Origin: an uncultured Christensenella sp.
GTDB lineage: Bacteria; Bacillota; Clostridia; Christensenellales; CAG-917
Direction of reading: 5' to 3'
DNA length: 64,000 nucleotides
Assembly: GCA_910578325.1 (NCBI GenBank)
Contig: CAJTQT010000002.1
Coordinates: 235,074 to 299,073 of the forward strand
Below the pieces are notes generated by a model. The model had not been told where the DNA came from. It saw nothing but the letters and a program-made list of their open reading frames with translations, and searched no databases. Position numbers and translations under genes: made by a program. Every line of letters begins with the position of its first letter. The stretch's first letter is position 1. Of this stretch, positions 3,699 to 17,174 are shown one piece after another.

Positions 3699-4385
3699 TT
3701 ATTTTTGCGTGCGGCGATATTCTGACATAGGTCTTTCGCCGAACAAAAGCCGTCCGAGCCGGAGCATATTCGCACCGTGCGCCAACGCGATCTTATAATC
3801 GCCCGACATACCCGCCGACAAATACTCTATATCTGAATTTCGGGTTTTTATATTCCTTACTCTCTCAAACAGACTTTCCAACCTCGCGTATTCCCCATGC
3901 AACTCTTCTGCATCCGGCAAATTCGGCATTACGGACATAATGCCCTTGACTTCTATATGCGGATAGTTTTCAAGACTATCGATAAAATCGCATACCTTTT
4001 CGGGACTAACACCGCCTTTCGTAATTTCCGCGCCCATATTGACTTCAACAAGGCACTGCTGAACTTTATTGCGTTTTGCGGCTTGTTTTTCTATTTCGCA
4101 AGCGAGTTCGTGTCTGTCCAGCGAATGTATGAGCGAGACTTTATCAATAATGTATTTCACCTTATTCGTCTGTAACCGTCCGATAAAATGCCAGTCGTAA
4201 CGGGAATCGTATTTGGATGTCAGTTCCTGAACACGGTTCTCGCCCAGGACAAATTCGGGCGCGTACACCATAAACTCGTCAACAGTCTGTTTGGTCTGAG
4301 TTTTACAGGCGGCAACGAGTACGACTTTGCGTCCGCACTCCGAAACGTCTTTCCTTACAGATTCCAAACCGTCAAACAATATCAT
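3699..4385 (-). CDS. yggS: YggS/PLPBP family pyridoxal-phosphate homeostasis protein
   Basis: 'WHFIGRLQTNKVKYI' signature, 228 aa, located next to sepF. Confidence 0.9.
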   Translation of the reverse strand: MILFDGLESVRKDVSECGRKVVLVAACKTQTKQTVDEFMVYAPEFVLGENRVQELTSKYDSRYDWHFIGRLQTNKVKYIIDKVSLIHSLDRHELACEIEKQAAKRNKVQQCLVEVNMGAEITKGGVSPEKVCDFIDSLENYPHIEVKGIMSVMPNLPDAEELHGEYARLESLFERVRNIKTRNSDIEYLSAGMSGDYKIALAHGANMLRLGRLLFGERPMSEYRRTQK

Positions 4386-11773: not shown

Positions 11774-13378
11774 TCATTTCTTTTCATTATAAATATCGGG
11801 CAAATCATTTAATATCAGCAAAATATCCCCAACGTGAAGACGGTTTGAAAAATCATCTTCCGCGTCGGAAAGGCTGTTGTAAATATGTATTTCCCCGCCG
11901 TAACCGCCGTCTACAAGCCCTCTTCTTATGGGATCCGTACGTTTTAAACCGACCAGAAGCACAAGGTCCGCCACCTCGCTCATAAGCGTGCCGAGTTTAT
12001 AGTTCTCTTCGCTTTCGCGTTCGCCAAGTTCCACAAGACCGGGCGTTAATATGACGCGCCTGCCCTCGAACAGTCCGAGAGTTTCCAGCGCGGTGCGCGC
12101 GCCGTCGGGATTTGAATTGAAACTGTCGTCGATAATTTTAATTCCGTTGCCGTGAACAAGTTGCATTCTGTGCGGAACCGGTTCCAACTTCTCTATCGCG
12201 TCGAGGATAAAGGGTACTTCAACCCCCAGTTTATATGCCATAGTCGCTGCAAGCAGAATATCCTCTATGTTGGGATATCCTATCAGAGGCGTACGCACGT
12301 AATGACTTTCTCCGTCTAAAATTATGTCGAAATCGCTTCCGTTTTCGGTTGTGCGTATCTGCTCCGCTCTGAAATCGCATTTTTCGTCTATGCCCGAATA
12401 AACTATAGTAGGCTTCTTTTTAAGATTATTAATACTCTCTTCCGCATCCTTTCTTACCGTAGAATTGACTACGCAGAATCCTTCCTCTCCGACTCTGAGT
12501 ATTCTGCACTTTTCACGCGTAATGTTTTCCTGCGTTCTGAAAGTTTCCAGATGCTGAGAGTTTATACCCGTTAAAATAGTGTAGTCGGGTTTAACTATTC
12601 GCATAAGCGTGCGGATATCGCCCACCCTCCGAGCACCGAACTCCGCTATGAAAACATCGTGTGTTCCGTCAAGTCCGTTTACGGTTTTCGATATACCCAT
12701 AGGAGTGTTGTAACTCGCGGGCGTGACAAGCACGTTGTATTTTTCAGAAAGTATCGCCGCAAGAAAATTCTTTACGGACGTTTTACCGAAACTGCCGGTT
12801 ATCGCTATGCGTATCAGATTCGGATTTGCGTCCAGCAATCTTACGGTGCGCCTTTCATAACGCTTATTGTTTATTCTTTCAAACACGTTTATAACCGCGC
12901 CGAACGTCATAAATATCAGCGGATACACTATCGGGAATCCGAACAGAACAAGATAGCGCATATACGGTTGCGTAATATACGCGTTGCCGACTGCAAACGC
13001 AAGTATAATTACGGTTGTAGATAACACCGTCATCAAAAATAGGAATCTGACCGCGCGTTTTGTATATCTCAGCGGTTTTTTACGCGTAGGCAAATCTTCC
13101 ATAAAATACATAGCGAATTCCGCTATGAAAAAGAACAACACCGTAAGAAAACCCCAAAAGGCGCGCGTCTGCAAGAAATAGAATATACACCATACGCTTA
13201 TAAACAGCGCGACGGCGCACAAATCTATGAGATAAACGAATTTCAACCGCCTGTTCTTAAAAATCTCCGAAATTCTGTAATTATCCTGCTGTATGGCGTA
13301 AAGATATGGGCGCGTCATAAAAAACGCGTCTATAAACACCAAAAGCACGTAGAACCAGTCGCCTCTAACCAACGTCAT
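11774..13378 (-). CDS. murF: MurF-like Mur ligase (UDP-MurNAc-tripeptide--D-Ala-D-Ala ligase) with an N-terminal polytopic membrane domain
   Basis: 'ITGSFGKTSVKNFL' P-loop and 'IDDSFNSNPDGA' C-domain motif. The first roughly 170 aa are hydrophobic helices rather than the usual MurF N-domain. Confidence 0.75.
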   Translation of the reverse strand: MTLVRGDWFYVLLVFIDAFFMTRPYLYAIQQDNYRISEIFKNRRLKFVYLIDLCAVALFISVWCIFYFLQTRAFWGFLTVLFFFIAEFAMYFMEDLPTRKKPLRYTKRAVRFLFLMTVLSTTVIILAFAVGNAYITQPYMRYLVLFGFPIVYPLIFMTFGAVINVFERINNKRYERRTVRLLDANPNLIRIAITGSFGKTSVKNFLAAILSEKYNVLVTPASYNTPMGISKTVNGLDGTHDVFIAEFGARRVGDIRTLMRIVKPDYTILTGINSQHLETFRTQENITREKCRILRVGEEGFCVVNSTVRKDAEESINNLKKKPTIVYSGIDEKCDFRAEQIRTTENGSDFDIILDGESHYVRTPLIGYPNIEDILLAATMAYKLGVEVPFILDAIEKLEPVPHRMQLVHGNGIKIIDDSFNSNPDGARTALETLGLFEGRRVILTPGLVELGERESEENYKLGTLMSEVADLVLLVGLKRTDPIRRGLVDGGYGGEIHIYNSLSDAEDDFSNRLHVGDILLILNDLPDIYNEKK

Positions 13379-13414: not shown

Positions 13415-14152
13415 TCAGCCGATAAACGCGCGCAGTATTGCAATAAACTTCGCGCTGTCGTCTACATAGGAGAAATGTCCGCCGTCCAGCCAGAACAGAT
13501 AACTTCCCCTTATTCCGTCATTGAGTTTCCGCGCCATATACGGCGGAGTTTCGCCATCGTCTTTTCCCCAGAACACCGCCGCAGGACATCGGACAGAGTC
13601 TAAAAGCGGAGTCTGATCGTAATTGACTACCTTTTTAAACGTTTCGCGCATTACCTGCGACAGCGTTCTGTAATCGGACGAACCTTTTAATCCCTTCAAT
13701 CCAAGCCGCCGGAGCAGTTTATGAGTACCCACCTTGACGTAATATTTCAATCCGCGTCTGGGTTTTAAGCCCGCGCTGTCCACAAGCGCGACCGAGCGCA
13801 CTATATGCGGAAACTTTGCCGCAAGTTCCAAACAAACGCGCCCCCCGAAAGAATGCCCGACAAAATGCGCGTCTTTTATCCCTATGATTCCCAAAAGCGA
13901 AATTACGTCGGAAGCATAATCAGGCACGCCATAAGGCTCGGCAGGTTCTTCGCTCTCGCCGAACCCCGCAAAGTCCAACACGGTTACTCTGTGCATAGCG
14001 GAAAACTTTTCCGCGACAAATAAAAAGGCGGAGATGCCTGCACCCCAGCCGTGTAAAAAAACGATATCGTCGCCCGTACCGAATGATACGTAGCGAATTT
14101 TGTGTCCGTTGACAGTCGCGAATTTGTAACCGCGATTGTTTTCTTTATCTAT
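13415..14152 (-). CDS. Alpha/beta-fold hydrolase with a probable non-canonical (ATA) start
   Basis: 'GHSFGGRV' nucleophile elbow. The in-frame sequence upstream of the first ATG (13996) encodes '..FGTGDDIVFLHGWGAG..', the oxyanion-hole HGxG region. There is no ATG, GTG or TTG between that region and the upstream stop at 14168-14170. GGGGAGGA lies 6 nt upstream of the ATA at 14152. Confidence 0.6.
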   Translation of the reverse strand: MDKENNRGYKFATVNGHKIRYVSFGTGDDIVFLHGWGAGISAFLFVAEKFSAMHRVTVLDFAGFGESEEPAEPYGVPDYASDVISLLGIIGIKDAHFVGHSFGGRVCLELAAKFPHIVRSVALVDSAGLKPRRGLKYYVKVGTHKLLRRLGLKGLKGSSDYRTLSQVMRETFKKVVNYDQTPLLDSVRCPAAVFWGKDDGETPPYMARKLNDGIRGSYLFWLDGGHFSYVDDSAKFIAILRAFIG

Positions 14153-14597
14153 TCCCGTCCTCCCCGATAGTCAGCCACATAACAAGAGCGTCGTATCTGT
14201 TTGCATAATACCTCTTGCGTATGCCTTCCACCGTAAACCCGAACGACCTGTACATACTTACCGCCGCAAGGTTGGTGTCTTTGACTTCGAGCGTGACTCT
14301 GTTTACTCCCGCGCGACGCGCGCATTCAATCAGTTCGCGCATCAGCGTCCTGCCTATTCCTTTGCATCTTTCTTCCGCTTTGACGGCGATATTCGTTATA
14401 TGCGCCTCGTCGAGCACTTTATGAAATCCGCCGTAACAGATAACCTCGTTTTCTCCGCGTACGCCAACCAGATAAAACGCATTTCGGTCTGCGACCTCGG
14501 GAATAAACATACGCACGGACCAAGGTTGGTCGAACGCCTCGCTTTCTATCTCCGCCATCTGGGCGAGATGTTCAAATTTCAAGGGTTCAAACCTCAT
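14145..14597 (-). CDS. rimI: Ribosomal-protein-alanine N-acetyltransferase RimI (GNAT)
   Basis: 'ITNIAVKAEERCKGIGRTLM' acetyl-CoA motif. The likely start is MRFEPL at 14597, which overlaps the tsaB end. It shows tsaE-tsaB-rimI synteny. Confidence 0.85.
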   Translation of the reverse strand: MRFEPLKFEHLAQMAEIESEAFDQPWSVRMFIPEVADRNAFYLVGVRGENEVICYGGFHKVLDEAHITNIAVKAEERCKGIGRTLMRELIECARRAGVNRVTLEVKDTNLAAVSMYRSFGFTVEGIRKRYYANRYDALVMWLTIGEDGNR

Positions 14598-15180
14598 CCT
14601 TTTCTCTCTCCGCCTGCGATTTGCGCATATAGTACGGCGCAAGCACCTCGCAGAATTCTTCTCTTGCCAATTTCTGACGCACAACACATTCGAGCGCGCG
14701 GCATCTTTCGCATGCGGGCTCGCTGACCGCTCCCGTCAAATCGAGTCTCTCTTCCGCCTCAACGAATCTCGCCGAAACAACTTTTCCGTCCCGACATTCA
14801 GCCAGATACGCGTTGGAATGCCCCGCATCGACTAATGCCGTCGCATTTTCCCTATTGTATGCAATGAGTTCGAACGAAGTTACGCTTATTCTTTTTGCGT
14901 CGGTTGCAAAAGCAAGCGCAGTCATCGCCGATACACCTATTCTTATTCCCGTAAATGAGCCAGGTCCGACTACCGCCGCAACCGCGTCCAAATCGCCGAC
15001 ATTTAATCCGCTTTCTTTAAACAACTCATCAACAACAGGCATAAGCAGTCGGGAATGTCCCGACTTGCCTACCTCGATTTCGCGACAAAACGCGTCTCCG
15101 TCCTTTATAAGAACGGCTGTCAACCTGCTGTCGGTTGTATCCACCGCAAGACAGTTCACTCGGTATCCTCGCTTTCGCAA
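14587..15180 (-). CDS. tsaB: tRNA t6A37 biosynthesis protein TsaB (YeaZ)
   Basis: 'LAVDTTDS' and 'GPGSFTGIRIGVS'. The start is uncertain: ATG at 15180 or GTG at 15161. Confidence 0.85.
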   Translation of the reverse strand: MRKRGYRVNCLAVDTTDSRLTAVLIKDGDAFCREIEVGKSGHSRLLMPVVDELFKESGLNVGDLDAVAAVVGPGSFTGIRIGVSAMTALAFATDAKRISVTSFELIAYNRENATALVDAGHSNAYLAECRDGKVVSARFVEAEERLDLTGAVSEPACERCRALECVVRQKLAREEFCEVLAPYYMRKSQAEREKDEV

Positions 15181-16478
15181 TCGGCAACGTCAGCCGCCTT
15201 CGCGCAAATTTTTTCTGTATCAATATCTGTGTCCGATTCGTTTATTACGGATTTTCCGGAATCGATTTCCGAATTCTCCGCACCCGCGTTTTCAGATTTT
15301 TTGTCTTCCGCACCCTCGGTTTCATTCGAATCAAAGCCCTCTTCCGATATATCGAAAATACGCGTTTCATCTTCCGCTTTTACCGATATTCGAATAACTT
15401 TGCCTTCAATTTTCCGAAATTTATTCCATTCTATAACAGTTACGGCATCCTCGTCAAAACAATCCTCTACACCGAGTTCGGAAAGTTCGTCCGCGCTTTC
15501 GACTCTGTACATATCCAGATGATTGAGATTGACGCGTCCGCTACCGTATACGTTGAGTATGGTGAAAGTCGGACTTGTAATCTCTTCCTTGACTCCCAAC
15601 GCGGCGGCAAGACCTTTTGTAAACGTAGTCTTTCCCGCACCCAAATCACCGTTAAGCAACAGCACTTCGCCGCCGTCGAGAGTTGCGGCAACCCTCTTTG
15701 CAAGCGCATACGTCTCCTCGACGGAATTGACCTTATACGAACCGCTTATACTCTTCTTGAGCAAACTGTTTCCCTCCCAATGCAAAAGTACGCTCAAACG
15801 CTTGTACAGCAGGAACGTAAGAGCCGACATAATTATACATCTGATCAGATTGAAAGGCAACACTCCCGCCAACAAATATAACGCATAAAAATTCTCCTGC
15901 GTCACGTTTTTATACGGCATCATGCCCAAAAGCGGCGCAAAGTTGCCGTGAAAGAACAGCTCCAGATAAGCGGGAACGGATATGAATCTGTTTACGATTA
16001 TGCCTGTGACAACGAAAGCCGCCGTACCGACAAGCAAGCCGATAAGCGCATGCTTCTTGTCTTTTTTCAATCTGTAAATTACGGACGACGGCAAAACGAG
16101 CGCGATTCCCATGAGAATATCCGTCGCTTCGCCCACAAGAAAAGTGGACGACAGCGGAAATTTCAGCAGGCATTTGAACACTATCACCAGACAGCCGCTT
16201 ATAGGTCCCATGGAAAATCCCGCAAGTAGCGCGGGAAGCTCGGACACCTGCATATCCAGAAAGCTCGGGAAAATCATCGGCAGACTGAACTTCGCAAACT
16301 GATACAAAACAAACGAAATTGCTGTCAACAGCGCAAGTTTCGCCACATAAGCGGCGGAAAATTTCGGACTTGCAAACTTCTTTAAAGTTGCAAGAATTGA
16401 CTCGCCCGTTTTATTTAATTTCTCTTTTACGGACTTTGCCGTTACATCTGCGGCAACAACGTTTTCATTTTTAGACAT
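15156..16478 (-). CDS. tsaE: Continuous ORF encoding an ECF-type riboflavin transporter S-component (RibU-like), then TsaE (YjeE ATPase), then an acidic tail
   Basis: Residues about 35-235 are polytopic and RibU/ECF-S-like and sit behind an FMN riboswitch. Residues about 240-375 carry 'GDLGAGKTTFTKG' and 'SPTFTILNVY' (TsaE). There is no stop codon between the two parts. Confidence 0.8.
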   Translation of the reverse strand: MSKNENVVAADVTAKSVKEKLNKTGESILATLKKFASPKFSAAYVAKLALLTAISFVLYQFAKFSLPMIFPSFLDMQVSELPALLAGFSMGPISGCLVIVFKCLLKFPLSSTFLVGEATDILMGIALVLPSSVIYRLKKDKKHALIGLLVGTAAFVVTGIIVNRFISVPAYLELFFHGNFAPLLGMMPYKNVTQENFYALYLLAGVLPFNLIRCIIMSALTFLLYKRLSVLLHWEGNSLLKKSISGSYKVNSVEETYALAKRVAATLDGGEVLLLNGDLGAGKTTFTKGLAAALGVKEEITSPTFTILNVYGSGRVNLNHLDMYRVESADELSELGVEDCFDEDAVTVIEWNKFRKIEGKVIRISVKAEDETRIFDISEEGFDSNETEGAEDKKSENAGAENSEIDSGKSVINESDTDIDTEKICAKAADVADCESEDTE

Positions 16479-16660
16479 AAAAAAACCTCGCTACCACGAG
16501 GCGTGCAAAATGGGCGCAATAGTAATAATAGATTTTAACGCCCGCTTCTTTCATCCGGACTATACCGTCGGTTTGGGAATTTCACCCAATCAACCCTTGC
16601 AGGCTCGCGGACTTTACCGCCGGTGAGGAATTACACCTCGCCCCGAAGCACTATTATGTT
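16479..16660 (-). promoter_or_regulatory. FMN riboswitch (RFN element) with an SD-sequestering, terminator-like hairpin
   Basis: The minus strand reads 'CTTCGGGGCGAGGTGTAATTCCTCACCGGCGGTAAAGTCCGCGAGCC...GATTGGGTGAAATTCCCAAACCGACGGTATAGTCCGGATGAAAGAAGCG', which matches conserved RFN cores. It is followed by CCTCG-tggtag-CGAGG + T7 + ATG, so the GAGG Shine-Dalgarno sits inside the stem. Confidence 0.9.
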
Positions 16661-16736
16661 ATATCCGCAGACATCGCAATGTCAACGGTTTTGTAAAAAT
16701 TATGAAAAAAAAGTAAATTTCGCAAATACTAATCCT

Positions 16737-17174
16737 ATGACAACGGCATTTATTTATCAAAACGCAGCATACTTCCAACCGTCGTTCGCTCTACAGAAAC
16801 TTAGTACCGCCTATGCCCGACAAAACTTTCAAGCAACCGACACAGAGGTAAAAGACGGAACGGATTTAGACAATATGACGGTTCCCTCTCCTATCACGGA
16901 AGATTTAATCGCCTTTACACTGCAATACGACTGTGTTGTAGGCGCGCGCGCATTCGAATATAACGGCGAGATAGTTGTCGCGGCAATTACTACTCCGTTT
17001 TATTTGAAAAGCGAGCGCGACAAAGCCAAAAACGAGATTCAATCCGACTTGCGTAACCTGACAGATTACGAAAACATCACCGTAACATTCGACGTCGGAA
17101 TTTACAGAAATATAAGAGAAGAGTTAAACGACAGCGATAAGGAACGTCTACTCAAACTCGCCAAAACACGCTAA
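16737..17174 (+). CDS. Hypothetical protein (start uncertain: 16656 or 16737)
   Basis: ORF 16623..17174. Its 5' part overlaps the riboswitch on the opposite strand. I recognised no family, and no clear SD precedes either ATG. Confidence 0.4.
   Translation: MTTAFIYQNAAYFQPSFALQKLSTAYARQNFQATDTEVKDGTDLDNMTVPSPITEDLIAFTLQYDCVVGARAFEYNGEIVVAAITTPFYLKSERDKAKNEIQSDLRNLTDYENITVTFDVGIYRNIREELNDSDKERLLKLAKTR

Follow-up and report, generated by a model that had tools for sequence, protein, structure and literature searches.

To our knowledge, FMN (flavin mononucleotide) riboswitches are thought to control flavin biosynthesis and uptake only. The usual view of TsaE, in turn, is that of a soluble ATPase, supplied constitutively and in many cases essential, in the pathway for the tRNA modification t6A (N6-threonylcarbamoyladenosine). 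In a 64-kb stretch of contig CAJTQT010000002.1 from an uncultured Christensenella sp. (hereafter the window, meaning the whole stretch analyzed), both are joined through one leader and one open reading frame (ORF), an arrangement found in many uncultured gut-type Clostridia close to Christensenella. What, then, does this riboswitch control? An earlier note on the DNA had placed an FMN riboswitch at 16479-16660, listed a RibU-like transporter, TsaE, TsaB, RimI and a hydrolase behind it in the same frame and overlapping units, and argued that flavin status would modulate the t6A-pathway genes unless internal promoters exist. It proposed a scan with Rfam model RF00050, a search for promoters inside ribU, and a comparison with relatives. 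The RF00050 RNA and the RibU-like transporter are textbook elements; what is new, as far as the literature that we searched goes, is a conserved ribU-tsaE fusion that heads a tsaB-rimI unit. We consider it probable that the element is an ordinary FMN OFF switch whose transcription unit was enlarged by accretion, with the t6A genes as passengers that are modulated, not gated.

The fusion gene, ribU-tsaE, is a single minus-strand ORF of 440 amino acids (15156..16478) that encodes two Pfam domains in one frame. Its N-terminal part is a RibU-type S-component of an energy-coupling factor (ECF) transporter (residues 45-225, nt 16346-15804), recognized by PF12822 (ECF_trnsprt) with 77.7 bits against a cut-off of 30.7. 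No NCBIfam model names this S-component, and its identity as RibU is taken from PDB sequence matches, the closest being RibU 3P5N from S. aureus (E = 1.5e-19) and 5KBW, with L. lactis RibU also matched. From these best matches and the FMN riboswitch context we infer specificity for riboflavin. A linker (residues 226-250) leads to the TsaE domain (residues 251-371, nt 15728-15366), which scores 116.3 bits with the TIGR00150 equivalog model (cut-off 60.1) and 126 bits with PF02367 (cut-off 26.6) and matches TsaE from B. subtilis and from T. maritima among the solved structures (PDB 5NP9, 5MVR and 6N9A_E, E ~1e-24 to 1e-25). It carries the motifs GDLGAGKTT, SPTFT, HLDMYR and EWN; with the first written as GxLGAGKTT, all four are invariant across 26 fusion sequences. 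Public annotation names the product just “TsaE,” which conceals the transporter half.

The protein ends in a tail with predicted disorder (residues 382-440, nt 15159-15335) that is acidic and of low complexity and runs up to the start of tsaB. AlphaFold2, run on an alignment of the 26 sequences, gave a poor model from which only the gross layout can be read (mean predicted local distance difference test score 59, predicted template-modeling score 0.40). At this low confidence it fits a helical membrane domain, an ill-defined linker (234-241), an alpha/beta domain (246-380) and the disordered tail. Since the C-terminus of ECF S-components is cytoplasmic, the TsaE domain would face the cytoplasm. 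The length and charge of the tail vary widely across the family, from acidic in the window's clade (clade A) to basic in clade C, and the stand-alone RibU proteins of two unfused relatives (L045 and L020) likewise bear long acidic tails.

Such an ORF could arise as an artefact, by an assembly or frameshift error or a recent pseudogenizing read-through that joined two genes, and in L045 one stop codon alone parts the two. The identical 440-residue protein, however, is encoded on eight contigs from independent samples. A word-indexed protein search over clusters at 90% identity found at least 120 distinct clusters that contain the two Pfam domains together and are 60-74% identical to the query, and an exhaustive search over 50%-identity representatives added more distant ones, with about 30 of the best 150 spanning both domains at 34-65% identity. 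We also read 23 more fused loci directly (L001-L009, L015-L019 and L095-L103). A short linker motif, LHW(E/D)GxS(L/M), is conserved among the fusions, and its serine alternates between AGY and TCN codons across clades, which points to the protein, not the DNA sequence, as the target of selection. A conserved internal methionine at the domain junction was sought across the clades and not found. The ribU-tsaE fusion is real and old, and the artefact explanation is effectively refuted.

If the fusion is genuine, its P-loop might have been turned to a new use. In that case the TsaE-like domain would work for the transporter, perhaps as an ATPase that regulates or energizes RibU, and t6A would be supplied through another gene. 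The architecture by itself, with a P-loop ATPase at the cytoplasmic end of an S-component, would suit such a role, as would the outcome of a motif search of the 64-kb window, which found no ABC-type (ecfA/ecfT-like) signature; a motif search of the same 64 kb found one TsaE P-loop. Several features nevertheless make a change of function very improbable: the domain's equivalog score lies far above the cut-off, all of the TsaE signature motifs are kept, the gene stands in canonical tsaE-tsaB-rimI order with translational coupling to its neighbors, and the corresponding position in unfused relatives is taken by an ordinary tsaE.

The relatives that share the arrangement are uncultured Clostridia/Bacillota metagenome-assembled genomes (MAGs), the nearest of them labelled as an uncultured Christensenella sp. 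Rfam places FMN aptamers of 106-123 bits upstream of the gene in L001-L011, and a second covariance model, made from those aptamers, finds the element in L015-L019, L045, L095-L098, L100, L102 and L103. In total, the riboswitch accompanies 22 of the 24 fused loci and also three unfused tandem loci. For background, a metagenome scan was dominated by matches to the Walker-A pattern GAGKTTFT; only about 8 of its 80 loci spanned the junction and the rest served as control, and an FMN aptamer is missing from all 74 other metagenomic loci that contain tsaE. The gene order around the fusion holds at identities as low as 35% and comprises nadD, rsfS, a small antisense ORF, the riboswitch, ribU-tsaE, tsaB, rimI, the hydrolase gene and a murF-like gene.

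The riboswitch itself is an ordinary, standard member of RF00050. The Rfam covariance-model scan, which covered the whole window, returned FMN as the sole match, on the minus strand at 16654..16539, with 111.5 bits against a gathering score of 66.2 (E = 3.9e-25) and with model positions 1-138 complete and not truncated. A strong sigma70-like promoter adjoins it upstream (16658..16685, minus strand), with a -35 element TTGACA at 16685-16680, a 16-nt spacer and a -10 element TATAAC at 16663-16658; a second possible -10, TAACAT, lies at 16661-16656. An equivalent promoter adjoins the aptamer in all 22 related loci checked, with 9-12 of 12 consensus matches. From the aptamer end to the start of the RibU-type ORF, on the same strand, are 60 nt. 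This leader ends in an expression platform at 16479..16502 (minus strand) that consists of the hairpin GCCTCGT-GGTA-GCGAGGT (16502..16485; seven pairs, of which two are G·U and four G-C, and a loop of four) and a U7 run (16485-16479). The Shine-Dalgarno (SD) sequence GAGG (16489-16486) sits within the 3′ arm of the hairpin, and the ATG follows the T7 at 16478.

The hairpin is weak when folded alone (-10.6 kcal/mol), so substantial leak is expected. On all these points the earlier note read the leader correctly: the aptamer is genuine, its interval spans aptamer and platform, and the geometry of hairpin and U-run, together with the modest folding energy, supports the dual role it had proposed, in which one element would act as SD sequestor and as weak terminator. 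Platforms of L001, L002 and L045 are built like that of the window. Clades B and C have a stronger terminator (to -18 kcal/mol) that stands apart from the SD. The dual terminator and sequestor is therefore particular to the window's clade, and transcription attenuation is the common denominator.

How ligand binding might reach the platform is suggested by a proposed anti-terminator/anti-sequestor strand, GCGAGGUGU (16641-16633, minus strand), which lies in the 5′ segment of the aptamer from P1-5′/J1-2 to the P2 5′ strand. Its predicted duplex with the 5′ arm of the terminator, ACGCCUCGU (16504-16496), reaches -15.3 kcal/mol, against only -11.4 kcal/mol for that arm paired with the SD-bearing 3′ arm. 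The pairing arises in unconstrained minimum free energy folds of L001 and L002, and also in the window transcript folded up to, and without, the 3′ arm of the terminator. In the absence of FMN, GCGAGGUGU would pair with the terminator 5′ arm, RNA polymerase would read through and the SD would remain free. With FMN bound, the strand would be held in the aptamer, the hairpin could form and termination would tend to occur at the U-run, while any full-length mRNA would be translated poorly with its GAGG occluded by the hairpin. A competing anti-terminator from the tail of the P1 3′ strand (GGGCGU × ACGCCU) was ranked below this pairing, at -11.7 against -15.3 kcal/mol. Folding also places that tail (GGGCGU, 16543-16538) in a small hairpin with GCGCCC (16517-16512), at 16512..16543 on the minus strand, with an A/U-rich loop of 20 nt. 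The hairpin is shared by L001 and L002, and L001 has a compensatory change in it (GGACG/CGTCC).

Behind the fusion, the transcription unit continues into two further t6A-cluster genes. The GTG start of tsaB (14587..15159, minus strand; TIGR03725, 111.5 bits against 69.3) overlaps the TGA stop of the fusion by 4 nt (GTGA at 15159). Likewise, the ATG of rimI at 14597 (14145..14597, minus strand; TIGR01575, 117.2 bits against 86.4) gives an 11-nt overlap with the end of tsaB. Through these overlapping ORFs, ribU-tsaE, tsaB and rimI are, as judged from gene layout, translationally coupled. A pattern scan from 16478 to 14145 found no strong terminator, its weak intragenic matches occurring at chance rate (11 against 8.0 expected), and the tsaE-tsaB(-rimI) association is present in every fused locus long enough to show it. 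The gene content listed in the earlier note thus holds, with no terminator between the genes from RibU to the hydrolase; its claim of a shared frame applies to TsaE only, as tsaB and rimI lie in other frames.

Whether flavin control extends through this unit depends on promoters inside it. The promoter search within ribU yielded a candidate, TTGCCT-17-TATAAT (15832..15860, minus strand), which is encoded by L-P-F-N-L-I-R-C-I-I in the last transmembrane helix of the RibU part. Thirty-two codons downstream is an SD-like GGGAGGG (codons for W-E-G; predicted anti-SD duplex -10.7 kcal/mol), part of a candidate internal ribosome-binding site and start (15762..15777, minus strand) in which GGAGG at 15777-15773 is followed, after an 8-nt spacer, by an in-frame TTG at 15764-15762. 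This TTG is residue 239, 12 residues ahead of the TsaE Pfam match. Promoter motif (TTGCCW-17-TATAAT) and SD/start occur at identical codons in seven of the eight clade-A loci, the internal start being TTG in five and ATG in two; both signals are missing in L098. Given the amino acids and the genes' own codon usage, the codon choices that make up the promoter motif have a joint frequency of ~0.076 (TTG 0.28, TGT 0.60, ATA 0.45), and synonymous conservation of the stretch is 0.61 against a gene mean of 0.46 (46% of pairs agree). The evidence for an internal promoter in the window's clade is suggestive, and the reservation of the earlier note about internal promoters appears to apply here. A second promoter-like site, within the TsaE domain (15457..15428), was set aside as it is confined to the window and not conserved.

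Promoter-like signals also occur elsewhere in the family. In clades B and C, a weak site (TTGACA-17-CAAAAT or similar) precedes tsaB from within the last part of the TsaE domain, at about fusion residue 357 in L003-L006 and about residue 375 in L007-L008; there it could allow some riboswitch-independent transcription of tsaB-rimI. The divergent fusion L019 has TTCACA-17-TATAAT-N6-ATG at the TsaE start, like the TTGCAA-17-TATAAT-N6-ATG of the unfused L045. The near-consensus promoter of L045 lies at 3860-3905, and the counterpart junction in L019 is about 60 nt before the P-loop region. The spacing from TATAAT to ATG suggests leaderless tsaE transcripts, which in L019 would come from a gene nested within the fusion ORF. 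A precedent for an internal tsaE promoter exists in M. tuberculosis, where its position inside the coding sequence of the upstream gene has been shown experimentally (PMC5335608).

Taken as a whole, the pattern is consistent with passengers under buffered control. The selected target of the switch would be riboflavin uptake. The t6A supply would probably be buffered first by the leak through the weak terminator and, in the window's clade, also by the internal promoter-like element and the SD/TTG, which could provide free TsaE, TsaB and RimI independently of FMN. Some features do point toward coupling: TsaE lacks a separate ORF, translation of tsaB and rimI is coupled, and internal signals went undetected in most fused lineages. 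The flavin control over t6A genes that the earlier note had envisaged is therefore plausible and probably partial; it is not established, given the internal promoter-like signals in seven of the eight clade-A loci.

A number of observations weigh against the passenger reading. The internal promoter and start were not found in clades B and C or in most divergent fusions, where TsaE seems to be made only as part of the fusion, so that buffering by an internal promoter is not general. Even in clade A, the synonymous conservation of the promoter stretch ranks only second in the gene and the motif is composed of conserved codons, which keeps the evidence at the level of suggestive. No covariation backs the anti-terminator, because it draws on aptamer nucleotides that every FMN riboswitch conserves. 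The statements on promoter use, on how efficiently transcription terminates and on initiation inside the ORF are all in silico predictions. Finally, two fusions have no riboswitch (L099, 1500-2774; L101, 2501-3535). Each starts 7-8 nt past its upstream gene, a PAP2 gene and rsfS, respectively, with which it is presumably co-transcribed, and the pair indicates that the fusion can persist without flavin control.

The strongest alternative holds that the fusion is the only source of TsaE, with no working internal promoter or start, so that FMN sets the levels of TsaE, TsaB and RimI and the linkage itself is under selection. Retention of the fusion across wide divergence (35-74% identity), the protein-level selection on the linker, the missing internal signals in clades B and C and most divergent fusions, and the near-universal riboswitch (22 of 24 fused loci) all fit this proposal, as does the recurrence of ribU near tsaE in unfused loci (L010, L011, L020 and L045). 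Yet the promoter- and ribosome-binding-site-like signals conserved in the window's clade run counter to it, the riboswitch-free L099 and L101 do as well, and in L010 and L011 a terminator insulates tsaE from ribU. Nor do we know of any biochemical link between flavins and TsaBDE, and a review of t6A offers no such chemistry (PMC4615747). For S. pneumoniae and many pathogens tsaE is an essential gene, for S. mutans a dispensable one (PMC12632869), so the cost of repressing it depends on the organism; where it is essential, as in many bacteria, tight repression at high FMN would be hazardous. On balance, we judge such exclusive wiring unlikely. A related proposal seems slightly less doubtful to us, though still improbable: that full-length RibU-TsaE is the working TsaE, so that in an order-level clade of Clostridia the TsaB-TsaD-TsaE cycle for t6A would be tethered to the membrane on a riboflavin transporter and set by FMN through a selected vitamin B2 wire. 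The best candidates for a tethered, working TsaE would be clades B and C and the divergent fusions, as they have no internal signals.

Unfused relatives indicate how the passengers may have been acquired. A stand-alone ribU follows the riboswitch in L010, from a Garciella-like MAG, and in L011, from a Lachnospiraceae MAG; a strong intrinsic terminator and promoter-like sites lie between this gene and tsaE-tsaB-rimI, which has its own SD. L020 has its riboswitch-ribU unit in divergent orientation to tsaE. L045 has window-like synteny and the terminator/SD platform, with ribU and tsaE in one frame, parted by TAA and 12 nt. The comparison with relatives thus turned up putative promoters for tsaE itself in L010, L011 and L045, which would mean that tsaE historically had its own. 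The history may have started from a riboswitch-run ribU beside tsaE-tsaB-rimI, a state that L010 and L011 would retain; the spacer would next have been reduced to one stop codon, as in L045; and loss of that stop codon would last have produced a membrane protein that carries a TsaE domain in the cytoplasm, attached through a linker of 12-25 residues. Accretion, in which a transporter unit under riboswitch control took in a neighboring housekeeping cluster, is the simplest reading, although L045 is possibly a product of fission in the opposite direction.

Two systems in B. subtilis provide the closest comparison for the leader. There, the RFN element of ypaA/ribU controls a riboflavin S-component by SD sequestration, and the FMN riboswitch of ribDEAHT acts by transcription termination. 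The window shares the RF00050 aptamer and, as proposed, the OFF logic with both and the RibU-type first gene with ypaA/ribU, and its platform would join the two read-outs in one hairpin, as terminator and SD sequestor. Unlike either, its ORF runs in frame into TsaE and its transcript on into tsaB and rimI. Surveys of FMN regulons list riboflavin biosynthesis and transport genes and some oddities (yaaDE, a carbohydrate kinase), and no t6A genes (PMC3766115, PMC4418817).

The downstream genes resemble the canonical Gram-positive tsaE-tsaB-rimI(-tsaD) cluster, ydiB-ydiC-ydiD-ydiE in B. subtilis (PMC4615747), in their order and overlapping stop and start codons. M. tuberculosis has an operon alr-tsaE-tsaB-rimI-tsaD-groESL (PMC5335608) and shares with the window a tsaE promoter within an upstream coding region, which in the window is proposed only. 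In contrast to the canonical cluster, tsaE is here the C-terminal domain of a membrane transporter without an ORF of its own, tsaD is not part of the cluster, the hydrolase and MurF-like genes stand in its place, and an FMN riboswitch heads the unit. Fusions of t6A proteins are known, namely TsaC/HemK in M. genitalium, Kae1-Bud32 in Archaea, and the YrdC-like/Kae1-like HypF and TobZ (PMC4615747). They are a precedent for joining a t6A component to another protein, but their partners are soluble and mostly pathway-related (Kae1-Bud32, HypF, TobZ), unlike the transporter in the window. The literature that we searched held no TsaE-transporter fusion and no FMN regulon with t6A genes. On riboflavin auxotrophy in Christensenella, it yielded incidental mentions only.

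Should the coupling prove functional, vitamin status and translation fidelity would be connected in a new way, and TsaE would be shown to be capable of acting from an anchor on a membrane protein. Should it be accidental, the locus would still offer a clean case, with intermediates kept, of how accretion and stop-codon loss can put an essential housekeeping gene under a metabolite riboswitch, and it would illustrate possible compensation by promoters and starts nested in the new ORF.

Beyond rimI, the unit continues with an alpha/beta-hydrolase gene (13415..14151, minus strand), kept 3′ of rimI in L001-L009, L095-L098 and L100-L102. Its frame is open from about 14155 and has no ATG, GTG or TTG before the listed ATG at 13996, although this 5′ open part codes for the conserved N-terminus with its oxyanion-hole motif HGWG. 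The sole start candidate there is an ATA at 14151-14149, 5 nt past an SD-like run, GGGGAGGA. With no usual start codon, the gene either uses a non-canonical start or gives an N-truncated, probably inactive product. A MurF-like Mur ligase gene (11774..13378, minus strand) begins 36 nt past the hydrolase gene and probably belongs to the same transcription unit as its distal part; ddl follows on the same strand. The ligase has an N-terminal multi-transmembrane region of about 180 hydrophobic residues in place of the usual N-terminal Mur ligase domain and falls under the cut-off of the murF model TIGR01143 (213.8 against 288.6 bits). This membrane-anchored form is kept across the clade (L001-L009, L095-L098).

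Opposite the riboswitch promoter, a divergent plus-strand ORF (16623-17174) encodes up to 183 amino acids and has no Pfam match. Its longest form would overlap the aptamer on the other strand, so the true start is probably an ATG near 16738. A small antisense ORF occupies this position in all relatives, and the copy in L098 has a weak match to Spore_YhcN_YlaJ.

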